Part shown: in pieces, positions 9,547-12,076 of the stretch
Position numbering within the stretch: the first letter of the stretch is position 1
How the letters are laid out: every line of letters begins with the position of its first letter
Source of the DNA: a virus
Taxonomy: Duplodnaviria; Heunggongvirae; Uroviricota; Caudoviricetes
Reading direction: 5' to 3' (one strand)
DNA: 13,283 bases
IMG/VR virus record: IMGVR_UViG_2695420646_000004
Made by a program: the position numbers and the translations under genes
Notes under the pieces: model-generated
Databases searched by the model: none
What the model was told of the DNA's origin: nothing
The model's input: the letters and a program-made list of their open reading frames with translations, nothing else

Positions 9547-10856
9547 GAGAAGTGGGCTGGCGGTCCCTGTTTCAGGCGATGGCTGAGCCTTTTGCCGGTG
9601 CCTGGCAGCAGGGTGTGAAAGCCGATCCGGAAACCGTTTTGTCCTTTCACGCGGTGTTTTCTTGCATTTCGCTGATATCCCAGGATATCGCCAAAATGCG
9701 GCTGCGCCTGATGCAGACGGATACACAGGGGATCCGCCGTGAAAAACGGCAGGGGGATATTGCCCGTCTCTGTCGTCGTCCCAATGCACAGCAGAATCGT
9801 ATCCAGTTTTTTGAACTGTGGCTGAACGCCAAACTGCGTCACGGCAATACGGTGGTGCTGAAAATCCGTAACTCCCGGGGGCAGATCAAAGAACTGCGTA
9901 TTCTGGACTGGAGCCGGGTTGAACCTCTGGTGGCGGATGACGGCGAGGTGTTCTACCGCATCACGCCGGACCGGAACTGCGGGATCACGGAGGCGGTGAC
10001 GGTGCCTGCCCGGGAAGTGATCCACGACCGGTTTAACTGTTTTTTTCATCCGCTTGTGGGGCTGCCGCCGGTGTATGCCGCCGGGCTGGCGGCCACGCAG
10101 GGGCATCATATTCAGGAAAATTCGACGTCTTTTTTCAGAAATGGCGGCAGGCCATCCGGGGTGATTGAGATCCCCGGCAGTATTACGGAAGAAAATGCGA
10201 AAAAACTGAAGAGCAACTGGGACAGCGGGTATACAGGCGAAAATGCGGGGAAAACGGCCATTCTGAGCAACGGGGCAAAATACAACCCCACGACGTTTTC
10301 ACCTGTGGATGCGCAGACGGTGGAACAACTGAAGATGACCGCTGAAATTGTCTGTTCGGTGTTCCGTGTCCCGGCCTACAAGATTGGCGTTGGCCAGCCA
10401 CCTTCCAGTGACAACGTGGAGGCGCTGGAGCAGCAGTATTATTCCCAGTGCCTGCAGACGCTGATTGAGTCCATTGAACTGTTACTGGATGAGGCGCTGG
10501 AAACGGGGGAAAACGAGAGTACGGAGTTTGACGTCACCACGCTGCTGAGAATGGACAGCGAACGGCGCATGAAAACGCTGGGTGAGTCGGTGAAAAATAC
10601 GCTTCTCACGCCCAATGAGGCCCGTAAACGTGAGAACCTGCCGCCCCTGGCCGGCGGTGATGCACTGTATCTTCAGCAGCAGAACTACAGTCTGGAGGCG
10701 CTGTCCCGTCGTGATGCCCGTGAAGATCCGTTTGCGTCGTCCGGGAAAAGAGTTTCAGCCCAACTGCCTGACGGCGCATCTGACGGTAATAAGGCAATCA
10801 GTGAAACAGAGCATGGTGCGTTGAAAGCGATGTTGAGGGGGATACTGCGAAAATGA
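9492..10856 (+). CDS. Portal protein (HK97 family)
   Basis: 454 aa with portal-typical central region (SFFRNGGRPSGVIEIPGSITEENAKKLKSNWDSGYTGENAGKTAILSNGAKYNPTTFSPVDAQTVEQLKMTAEIVCSVFRVPAYKIG). Confidence 0.9.
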   Translation: MWNLLRRTRKNQKSGRDVREVGWRSLFQAMAEPFAGAWQQGVKADPETVLSFHAVFSCISLISQDIAKMRLRLMQTDTQGIRREKRQGDIARLCRRPNAQQNRIQFFELWLNAKLRHGNTVVLKIRNSRGQIKELRILDWSRVEPLVADDGEVFYRITPDRNCGITEAVTVPAREVIHDRFNCFFHPLVGLPPVYAAGLAATQGHHIQENSTSFFRNGGRPSGVIEIPGSITEENAKKLKSNWDSGYTGENAGKTAILSNGAKYNPTTFSPVDAQTVEQLKMTAEIVCSVFRVPAYKIGVGQPPSSDNVEALEQQYYSQCLQTLIESIELLLDEALETGENESTEFDVTTLLRMDSERRMKTLGESVKNTLLTPNEARKRENLPPLAGGDALYLQQQNYSLEALSRRDAREDPFASSGKRVSAQLPDGASDGNKAISETEHGALKAMLRGILRK

Positions 10857-12076
10857 CGGAACGGGAACTGTCCATTATTCGTGCACTGGGCGAAGAATTC
10901 GCCACGGTGCTGGCGGATTTACAGCACACATTTGAGGAGAAGATGGCCGCGCAGGCACAAGCGTTTGAAGAGAAACTGGCTTCCCTGTCGGCGGTATTAC
11001 AGAAGCATGTGACGGTGGATGAGGTACATCCGGTTCTGCAGGCGATGGTGGATGACGCTGTGGGGACCATTCCGGTACCGCGTGATGGTCGTGATTATGA
11101 TCCGGATGTACTGCAGCAGGCGGTGAATGATGCGGTTGCGAATATTCCGGTACCGGCGGACGGCAAAAGTATCACCCCCGATGATGTGCGTCCGATGCTT
11201 GAGCAGATGGTGAAAGAGGCGGTAAGCCATATTCCTGTTCCGCGTGACGGTCGTGACTACGATCCGGATGTTCTGCAGCAGGCGGTGAATGATGCGGTTG
11301 CGAATATTCCGGTACCGGCGGACGGCAAAAGTATCACCCCCGATGATGTGCGTCCGATGCTTGAGCAGATGGTGAAAGAGGCTGTAAGCCATATCCCTGC
11401 TCCGCGTGACGGTCGTGATTATGATCCGGATGTACTGCAGCAGGCGGTGAATGATGCGGTTGCGAATATTCCGGTACCGGCGGACGGCAAAAGTATCACC
11501 CCCGATGATGTGCGTCCGATGCTTGAGCAGATGGTGAAAGAGGCTGTAAGCCATATCCCTGCTCCGCGTGATGGTCGTGATTACGATCCGGAAGTACTGA
11601 AGCAGGCGGTTCTGGAGGCGGTGAATGCCCTTCCGGCTCCGCAGGACGGGCGTGATGCCACGGCACTGGAAGTGCTCCCCGCTATTGACGATCAAAAATC
11701 CTTTCCCCGGGGCACGTATGCCACACACCTGGGCGGACTCTGGCGGGCGTATGAAAAAACGCACGGGATGCGGGGATGGGAATGCCTGGTTGACGGGGTG
11801 GCCGATATTGACGTCAGCATGACCGGCGAACGGTCGTTCACTGTGGTGGTCCGGCAGAGCAGTGGCCAGCGTACGGAAAAAACATTTTCCCTGCCGGTGA
11901 TGCTCTACCGCGGTGTGTTCAGAGCCGGTGAAACCTACCACCCCGGCGATACAGTGACATGGGGGGGCTCGCTGTGGCACTGCAACAGTATGACCGGTGA
12001 TAAACCCGGAGAAGCTCATTCATCAGGCTGGACCCTGGCTGCCAAACGGGGACGGGATGCTGGAGGCGGAAAATGA
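10853..12076 (+). CDS. Repeat-containing head-module protein of unknown function: N-terminal coiled-coil-like region, 3.5 tandem 54-aa repeats, and two chitin-binding-type (CBM5/12-like) C-terminal motifs
   Basis: ATGA-coupled to the portal stop and to the downstream connector start. In-frame tandem repeat; C-terminal motifs TYHPGDTVTWGGSLWHCNSMT...GWTL and TYATHLGGLWRAYEKT...GWECL. Confidence 0.8.
   Translation: MTERELSIIRALGEEFATVLADLQHTFEEKMAAQAQAFEEKLASLSAVLQKHVTVDEVHPVLQAMVDDAVGTIPVPRDGRDYDPDVLQQAVNDAVANIPVPADGKSITPDDVRPMLEQMVKEAVSHIPVPRDGRDYDPDVLQQAVNDAVANIPVPADGKSITPDDVRPMLEQMVKEAVSHIPAPRDGRDYDPDVLQQAVNDAVANIPVPADGKSITPDDVRPMLEQMVKEAVSHIPAPRDGRDYDPEVLKQAVLEAVNALPAPQDGRDATALEVLPAIDDQKSFPRGTYATHLGGLWRAYEKTHGMRGWECLVDGVADIDVSMTGERSFTVVVRQSSGQRTEKTFSLPVMLYRGVFRAGETYHPGDTVTWGGSLWHCNSMTGDKPGEAHSSGWTLAAKRGRDAGGGK
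11069..11640 (+). repeat. Tandem direct repeat, 162-bp unit, three near-identical copies plus a diverged fourth, within the CDS 10853-12076
   Basis: Units begin at about 11069, 11231, 11393 and 11555 (exact 162-bp period), differing at only a few silent or conservative positions; each encodes IPVPRDGRDYDPDVLQQAVNDAVANIPVPADGKSITPDDVRPMLEQMVKEAVSH. Confidence 0.9.

Follow-up and report, generated by a model that had tools for sequence, protein, structure and literature searches.

The closest described counterparts of the gene studied here, by position, are those of the minor head proteins SPP1 gp7 and Mu gpF, which are likewise accessory and located directly downstream of a portal gene; polymorphic toxins of the MuF type are also encoded beside portal genes (PMC5576092). 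The gene lies in a stretch of 13,283 nucleotides (IMG/VR record IMGVR_UViG_2695420646_000004, Caudoviricetes; hereafter the window), which is the late region of an Escherichia coli lambdoid prophage of the long-tailed Shiga-toxin (Stx) phage type, with 96-97% identity to Stx1a, Stx2a, and Stx2c phages of the genera Sawaravirus and Pankowvirus. It encodes a protein of 407 amino acids (aa), referred to here as the repeat protein, between the genes for the portal and the gp6-like head-tail adaptor Ad1. With SPP1 gp7, Mu F, and MuF proteins, the repeat protein shares a plan of N-terminal handle, variable middle, and C-terminal passenger, and it can be seen as a positional and architectural analogue of portal-bound SPP1 gp7 and Mu F, internal portal binding being proposed for the window protein as well. 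It has no sequence similarity to these proteins and no match to Phage_Mu_F (PF04233) at E <= 0.1. Unlike in MuF proteins, its C-terminal module is conserved, neither polymorphic nor a toxin, and its family has a stalk of repeats or collagen.

Other systems resemble parts of the repeat protein. T4 fibritin whiskers, the phi29 head fibre gp8.5, collagen-like tail fibres, and the fibres of phages 7-7-1 and Pa193 show the same succession of an attachment helix, a helical shaft made of repeats and broken at regular intervals, and a beta knob; collagen segments occur in some relatives of the window protein, and the fold of its end domain matches fibre tips. However, there is no homology in anchor or shaft, and the window gene is linked to the internal portal C terminus, not to neck or tail. 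Portal barrels of the P22 type are also helical extensions past the crown inside the head, and fused E. coli alleles described below extend the portal C terminus, but in P22 the barrel belongs to the portal itself and forms an uninterrupted coiled coil of 12 helices, whereas the protein of the window type mostly has a separate gene, a segmented stalk, and a beta-rich end, and lacks homology to the barrel. Finally, Cis13 (All3316) of the thylakoid-anchored contractile injection system of Anabaena (PDB 7b5h) carries a CBM5/12-like module in its modelled particle-bound part; it belongs to the baseplate and has a membrane helix at its C terminus (PMC8894136). Cis13 lacks repeats and is not linked to a portal; it provides a precedent for a CBM5/12-like fold in a particle-bound component of a phage-tail-like particle.

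The sequence of the repeat protein is present in databases many times over, and our literature search found no paper describing the PHROG 1289 family, to which it belongs, and no experimental work on its members. The family has no described function. It is distinguished from CBM-tipped phage fibres and portal-associated minor head proteins by its linkage to the C-terminal tail of the portal and by a common polymorphism of fused and split alleles. We tentatively favour the reading that the repeat protein is an elongated, probably trimeric accessory protein docked to the portal on its crown side, inside the head.

Linkage of the repeat-protein gene to the portal

Pfam matches of the neighbouring genes place the repeat-protein gene between portal and gp6-like adaptor, as a previous reading of the window made from the sequence alone (the sequence-only reading) had proposed. 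The window portal can be aligned over almost its entire length (residues 45-400) with the solved HK97 portal 8cez. The ATG of the repeat-protein gene overlaps the portal stop codon in the sequence ATGA (10853-10856), and its own stop overlaps the ATG of the adaptor gene (12073-12076). Both junctions (10847-10859 and 12066-12079) have this ATGA overlap and carry near-identical GCG(G)AAAATGACGG sequences.

Eighty loci from Alpha-, Beta-, and Gammaproteobacteria that encode portal homologues with 43-70% identity were compared. An open reading frame (ORF) with the end domain followed the portal gene in 73 of them: its start overlapped or abutted the portal stop in 54 and lay within 60 nucleotides in 13, genes encoding collagen-like or HNH proteins were inserted in 5, and a single locus had portal and repeat protein fused in one ORF. 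The same order was found in Salmonella FSL SP-016, Pseudomonas IME307, and Variovorax. The seven loci without the gene comprised two contig ends, one decayed locus, and four intact modules in which Ad1 directly follows the portal gene. Because of these four intact modules the gene, though prevalent, is dispensable, in agreement with the accessory status assigned to it earlier.

Presence of the gene coincides with a particular form of the portal. All gene-bearing loci in which the motif QQQNxSL could be located encode a portal tail of at least 42 aa, composed of a Pro/Ala/acidic linker and a terminal amphipathic helix; in the four intact loci lacking the gene, the tail measures 21-33 aa and has no helix. 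The length of Ad1 did not co-vary with the repeat-protein gene among related loci, and neither did the small ORF that precedes the portal gene. Additional genes occur at the same place. Two distant relatives encode extra collagen-repeat proteins between the portal and the repeat-protein homologue (L063, 5828-6307; L081, 5846-6454), and one metagenomic relative has a gene for a PKD-domain protein there. The collagen protein of L063 begins with an N-terminal helix of the repeat-protein type, which suggests that several passengers may share one portal docking handle.

In many E. coli copies, about half of them, portal and repeat protein are fused, a point that the sequence-only reading had missed. 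A run of six G residues instead of five at 10837-10841 joins both in a single ORF of 859-861 aa; phages 2851 and YYZ-2008 have this ORF, as do many RefSeq genomes. Among about 38 E. coli-type loci in IMG/VR, 16 were fused and about 22 split, with an equal range of repeat numbers in both states, and an even sample of 40 E. coli records yielded about 16 in the fused and about 22 in the split length class. G5 and G6 alleles share one flanking haplotype. The ratio of non-synonymous to synonymous substitution rates (dN/dS) of the repeat-protein gene was 0.13-0.27 and alike in fused-fused, split-split, and mixed comparisons, the signature of purifying selection in both allele types. Fusions also arose independently of E. 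coli, in Sphingosinicella (L070, 4369-6381) and in P0346 (1,237 aa), which carries about 25 repeats of another type (LPEPEPLPDI...) without the DG motif.

The RefSeq annotation pipeline PGAP takes the 861-aa form as intact and labels the split form, which is that of the window, as a "frameshifted" portal, so that the ORF studied here would be the downstream fragment of a pseudogene. This view is already contradicted, and we give it the least credence of all readings. In Salmonella, Pseudomonas, and Variovorax, and in 67 of the 73 diverse loci, the repeat protein is encoded separately, by a gene whose own start codon lies at the portal stop, and the window ORF retains its own ATG and a Shine-Dalgarno-like sequence. 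It has no portal homology (no match to PF04860 or TIGR01537), and the adjoining ORF 9492-10856 carries the whole portal domain. Split alleles also show the purifying selection just described. Since all outgroups are split and the portal C terminus RG[IF]L.K-stop of the E. coli split form is conserved in Salmonella, the split form is the ancestral state.

The portal codon that follows the G5 run is the rare AUA. A -1 slip in the P site on G5 would give the exact fusion; on G6, a slip of +1 would bring back the ending ...RGILRK-stop. Programmed slippage at the run is nevertheless unlikely, because the G run is missing in the Salmonella and Enterobacter relatives. Programmed frameshifting at the portal stop was likewise rejected as a general mechanism: the A-AAA-UGA and G-run contexts are unconserved outside E. 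coli.

The overlap with the portal stop, the co-occurring portal tail, and the repeated fusions point to the portal vertex as the site of the protein and, given the topology of portals, more likely to its inner side. They weigh against the proposal of the sequence-only reading that the protein decorates the capsid surface. A decoration protein on hexamer or pentamer sites of the whole shell would fit the location in the head module and the sugar-binding-type fold described below, but not the coupling, co-variation, and fusion with a portal present in 12 copies; furthermore, the gene follows the portal gene instead of lying beside the capsid gene, and Pfam and PHROG scans revealed no similarity to known decoration families. 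We consider capsid-wide decoration very unlikely.

Architecture of the repeat protein and its family

Tandem Repeats Finder detected a period of 162 base pairs with 3.3 copies, 96% matches, no indels, and a score of 989 at 11078-11610. The three near-identical in-frame units reported before, beginning at 11069, 11231, and 11393, were thereby verified; they differ from each other at 5-7 of 162 nucleotides and 0-1 of 54 aa. Each consists, as described, of two 27-aa halves, in which an IPxPxDG... motif precedes a helix of about 13-17 residues. The diverged fourth copy is present as well, but only its first 27 aa are kept, after which the C-terminal domain begins. Seventeen of the 18 pairwise differences between units fall on codon position 3 of the + frame, showing that the + strand is the coding one. 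An antisense ORF of 340 aa (10997-12019), in which the same differences would change 4-6 aa, was dismissed as a by-product.

Comparisons between alleles gave the repeat region the highest synonymous divergence (dS) of the gene (0.18-0.41, except for the two closest allele pairs) and its lowest dN/dS (0.08-0.17). A Serratia homologue has three near-identical units of its own, which points to homogenisation within lineages. Because the differences are almost all synonymous and the repeat dN/dS is low, the comparison indicates that selection acts on the protein sequence of the units and that they are homogenised lineage by lineage; the earlier interpretation as a recent expansion is too simple. 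The predicted variation in copy number was borne out. Matches by tblastn in phage records measured 699, 861, 1023, 1185, or 1347 nucleotides, complete E. coli-type ORFs in IMG/VR had 245, 299, 353, 407, 461, or 569 aa (steps of 54 aa), and near-identical prophages with similar genomes differed by several units. Such differences, and a range from 0 to about 28 repeats across the family, led us to reject a role as a head-length ruler. Many draft contigs stop within the array; these contig ends and many partial proteins show that the repeats break short-read assemblies.

An AlphaFold2 model of the full-length protein, built on an alignment of 103 sequences, predicts N-terminal helices at residues 3-52 and 55-71, with block means of the predicted local distance difference test score (pLDDT) of 80-90 for residues 1-50. 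This N-terminal helix is kept throughout the family. The stalk is modelled at low confidence (pLDDT mostly below 60) as an alternation of helices (about 13-17 residues) and IPxPxDGxD loops (12 residues). The repeats are strongly acidic, with a net charge of about -17, and the end domain is neutral. The C-terminal domain, which ends in W.LA.K.GRDGKD, is nearly full-length in 116 of 145 family representatives; cargo of the polymorphic-toxin type was rejected in view of this conservation.

The two chitin-binding-type motifs announced for the C-terminal part are both present, at aa 288-313 and 361-395. The second is, at the level of profiles and predicted structure, a CBM5/12 module. The window protein itself matched Pfam CBM_5_12 (PF02839) at residues 357-379 with 18.3 bits (E 0.0024), below the gathering score of 26.2; the assignment is made because the profile matches at the family level, in 26 of 32 diverse relatives at E <= 0.01 (best 3.2e-8), and PF02839 is a precomputed annotation of several homologues. 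The predicted module has the three-stranded antiparallel beta fold of CBM5/12 in about 45 residues, with W370, W375, and W393 conserved. Characterized CBM5/12 domains (Streptomyces ChiC ChBD, 2d49; Bacillus ChiA1 ChBD, 1ed7; Pyrococcus ChBD, 2rts) show the same pattern Y-x-x-GD-x-V-x-W/Y-x-G-x-x-W/Y ... P ... W, and the predicted window fold superposes on them at 1.8-2.3 Å over about 46 residues. In contrast to these, the window module forms part of a larger beta domain (about 145 aa), lacks the tandem-Trp surface of some chitin binders, and has no glycoside hydrolase partner. The first motif could not be demonstrated to be CBM5/12: it had no Pfam match, an alignment of the first with the second half by hhalign was weak (P 0.002-0.012 over 32-38 columns), and Alphaproteobacterial and PAJU2-type members do not have it. 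In a Foldseek comparison with the chitin oligosaccharide deacetylases 3wx7 and 4ny2, more than one sub-domain seems to align (116-123 columns), with a high root-mean-square deviation.

A PDB search with the family profile returned only matches of the CBM type, the best being Cis13 (7b5h, E 0.0016); one with the 407-aa sequence yielded only designed helical repeats, driven by composition, and no solved homologue of N terminus or stalk emerged from the PDB searches. By fold, the end domain matched Cis13 as well, together with the tail fibres of phages 7-7-1 and Pa193 in the PDB and 37 viral proteins in BFVD (E < 1e-3), most of which have collagen repeats or ChiC_BD or resemble tail fibres. Collagen repeats (PF01391) occur in 6 of 32 relatives, and the window protein has no Gly-X-Y repeats. 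The weak CBM_5_12 match was the only one to a functional family in Pfam, NCBIfam, and PHROG scans of the 407-aa protein.

The family is very large, another aspect absent from the sequence-only reading. An exhaustive HMMER search yielded 5,641 clusters at 50% identity with E < 1e-3, and 653 with E < 1e-30. Its members share an N-terminal helix, a middle of 0 to about 28 repeats or of collagen segments, and the end domain. The window protein matches PHROG 1289 with E 1.4e-195 over repeats and C-terminal domain, as do ten diverse family representatives, and also PHROG 2271 at positions 455-859. Homologues from E. coli carry a precomputed PF28083 annotation. The gene was detected in 1,246 of 5,426 complete E. 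coli genomes (23%).

Proposed location and role at the portal vertex

The C terminus of phage portals lies in the crown, facing the head interior, and large C-terminal fusions to the T4 portal reportedly end up inside the head. The co-occurrence of tail and gene and the repeated fusions argue that the N terminus of the repeat protein adjoins the portal C terminus. As this terminus is internal, the protein would most likely hang from the crown inside the prohead or head. In the docking that we infer, a coiled-coil-type N-terminal helix of about 50-70 aa would bind the extra C-terminal helix of the portal, to which the flexible Pro/Ala/acidic linker leads. Since some relatives carry collagen Gly-X-Y segments in their stalk, the repeat protein probably forms trimers; twelve portal tails would then hold four trimers, with the linkers absorbing the mismatch between 12-fold and 3-fold symmetry. 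The stalk of 27-aa helix-loop repeats, changing in number by 54-aa blocks, would hang from the crown, and the end domain with its CBM5/12 fold would bind a conserved ligand, such as the capsid protein or its scaffold domain or, if the protein leaves with the DNA, the glycan of peptidoglycan. Among the parts of the protein, the end domain varies least between hosts whose surface glycans are unrelated, and it has no diversifying signal; a conserved ligand would account for this better than a host-specific receptor.

Chief among the alternatives is an external fibre, or whisker, at the neck or portal vertex, in which trimers would attach to the portal clip or the adaptor by their N-terminal coiled coil, and the CBM5/12 knob, held out on a stalk of variable length, would bind glycans of the cell surface or the environment, aiding reversible adsorption. 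The adhesin proposed by the sequence-only reading survives in this form, restricted to the neck. The fold of the end domain speaks for it, as does the sequence of anchor helix, repeat shaft, and knob, which is the classic plan of a fibre. Polymorphism of stalk length among near-identical prophages and the existence of intact modules without the gene also count in its favour. However, fusion to the portal would trap the protein in the head, and fused alleles are nonetheless common and under purifying selection; the portal tail co-varies with the gene and the adaptor does not; and a domain conserved across unrelated surface glycans is the opposite of what is typical of receptor-binding proteins.

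Several points weigh against the internal location that we favour, some of them directly supporting the fibre. The structurally characterized phage relatives of the end domain are all external, namely the tail fibres of 7-7-1 and Pa193 and the fibre-like BFVD proteins with collagen repeats or ChiC_BD. Collagen segments among relatives are typical of exposed fibres, and so are the PKD or collagen genes that occupy the same slot. The very acidic stalk would be awkward beside packed DNA, and stalks of up to about 28 repeats, if rigid, would be longer than the head diameter. In addition, the co-occurrence of tail and gene is based on just three or four independent lineages lacking the gene and could be explained by tight linkage, the tail codons abutting the gene, and the E. 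coli fusions could be tolerated loss-of-function alleles toggling at G5/G6. We place the internal protein first, without great confidence, and regard the external fibre as possible but somewhat less probable.

An assembly factor of transient presence was also considered. It would sit on the portal crown in the prohead, bridge the portal to the scaffold (delta) domain of the capsid protein for portal incorporation or shell nucleation, and be degraded or expelled at maturation, so that virions would lack it. In the module, the scaffold has no gene of its own but is fused with protease and capsid protein, and the capsid protein of relatives has 460-534 aa. The repeat protein is acidic and helical like scaffolds, the conservation of its end domain parallels that of the head module, and the portal tail and fusions suit this role too. 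On the other hand, searches of Pfam, PHROG, NCBIfam, and PDB sequences gave no match to any scaffolding family; a conserved, structured shaft of freely varying length is unexpected for a bridging factor; and the four intact modules assemble without the gene. We judge this role improbable.

Portal-docked accessory proteins, as favoured here, might belong to a broader, so far unrecognised system, although we consider the following proposal less likely than not. In HK97-like proteobacterial siphophages, a helix on the portal tail would capture the N-terminal helix of trimeric passengers inside the head. The standard passenger, tipped by CBM5/12, would be released with the DNA or act on the DNA spool, and in E. 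coli the G5/G6 tract would toggle between the two-protein and the fused state.

Gene context, annotation, and significance

The features of the window are compiled in Table 1. Terminase, protease, capsid, and portal genes follow each other in an order unlike that of HK97. Prohead protease, a scaffold-like coiled coil, and the major capsid protein are combined in a single ORF; protease and capsid protein have separate genes in Variovorax and metagenomic relatives. Most related modules have an ORF of 50-120 aa at the position of the small ORF preceding the portal gene, with or without the repeat-protein gene. The small terminase gene contains a 27-base-pair tandem duplication (5501-5554, 2 copies, 85% match) encoding a Lys/Ala-rich stretch, and the DUF6645 ORF lies in a region of accessory genes in Stx phages. 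Between Ad1 and the gp10-like gene, where the head-closure (gp7-like) gene is expected, nine N bases occur at 12474-12482. The ORF pieces at its sides (12409-12603 and 12504-12707) differ in frame, so the N run hides a gap or a frameshift; related records have one gene of 351 nucleotides.

Table 1 Coordinates of genes and protein regions in the window.
Feature	Position	Strand	Basis or remark
DUF6645-domain ORF, 245 aa	133-870		E 6e-20; upstream of lysis cassette
Lysis genes			First in the gene order, followed by HNH endonuclease
HNH endonuclease	4402-4767		
Small terminase	5058-5621		
Large terminase	5618-7279		
Protease-scaffold-capsid fusion, 645 aa	7343-9280		
Small ORF, 73 aa	9325-9546		Between capsid and portal genes, overlaps portal start; RefSeq hypothetical
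Portal gene, 454 aa	9492-10856	+	Pfam Phage_portal E 4e-81; TIGR01537 portal_HK97 E 1e-106
Portal C-terminal tail, 52 aa after QQQNYSL motif	10698-10853	+	Low-complexity linker and terminal amphipathic helix
Portal terminal amphipathic helix SETEHGALKAMLRGILRK	~10800-10853	+	Within C-terminal tail
GAGGGGG, Shine-Dalgarno-like for repeat-protein gene	10835-10841	+	Contains G5 run 10837-10841
Repeat-protein gene, 407 aa (PHROG 1289 family)	10853-12076	+	ORF, translation, PHROG match
N-terminal helical, coiled-coil-like segment, aa 1-72	10853-11068	+	AlphaFold2; proposed docking helix
Three near-identical 162-bp (54-aa) units	11069-11554	+	Tandem Repeats Finder and unit comparison
Diverged fourth half-unit, aa 235-261	11555-11635	+	Unit comparison
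C-terminal beta-rich domain, aa 262-407	11636-12073	+	AlphaFold2 on family alignment, mean pLDDT 90.2 when modelled alone
First beta sub-domain with first motif GTYATHLGGLWRAYEKT...GWECL (aa 288-313)	11699-11857	+	
Predicted CBM5/12-fold module YHPGDTVTWGGSLWHC...GWTL, aa ~351-397	11903-12043	+	
gp6-like head-tail adaptor Ad1	12073-12399	+	Pfam Phage_connect_1 E 1.4e-7; PHROG 40
HK97 gp10-like gene	12704-13150		

Database names do not reflect what the repeat protein is. PHROGs 1289 and 2271 are labelled "portal protein" because of the fused ORFs, and at NCBI members are called "phage portal protein", "gp6-like head-tail connector" (Klebsiella and Enterobacter homologues), or "hypothetical". 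The connector name is unsupported by any domain, the 407-aa protein having no match to Phage_connect_1 (PF05135). Mislabelled as portal, gp6-like connector, or broken gene, the family is invisible in comparative work.

The gene belongs to the head module of long-tailed Stx1, Stx2a, and Stx2c phages, and its common fused and split alleles constitute a natural experiment. If the protein is an external fibre instead of a portal-docked one, it would be a conserved glycan-binding adhesin of Stx phages and could bear on adsorption. If docking to the portal tail is true, the repeat protein would be a new portal partner in the HK97-like lineage, the best studied among capsids, and would also provide a natural handle by which proteins could be loaded into phage heads.

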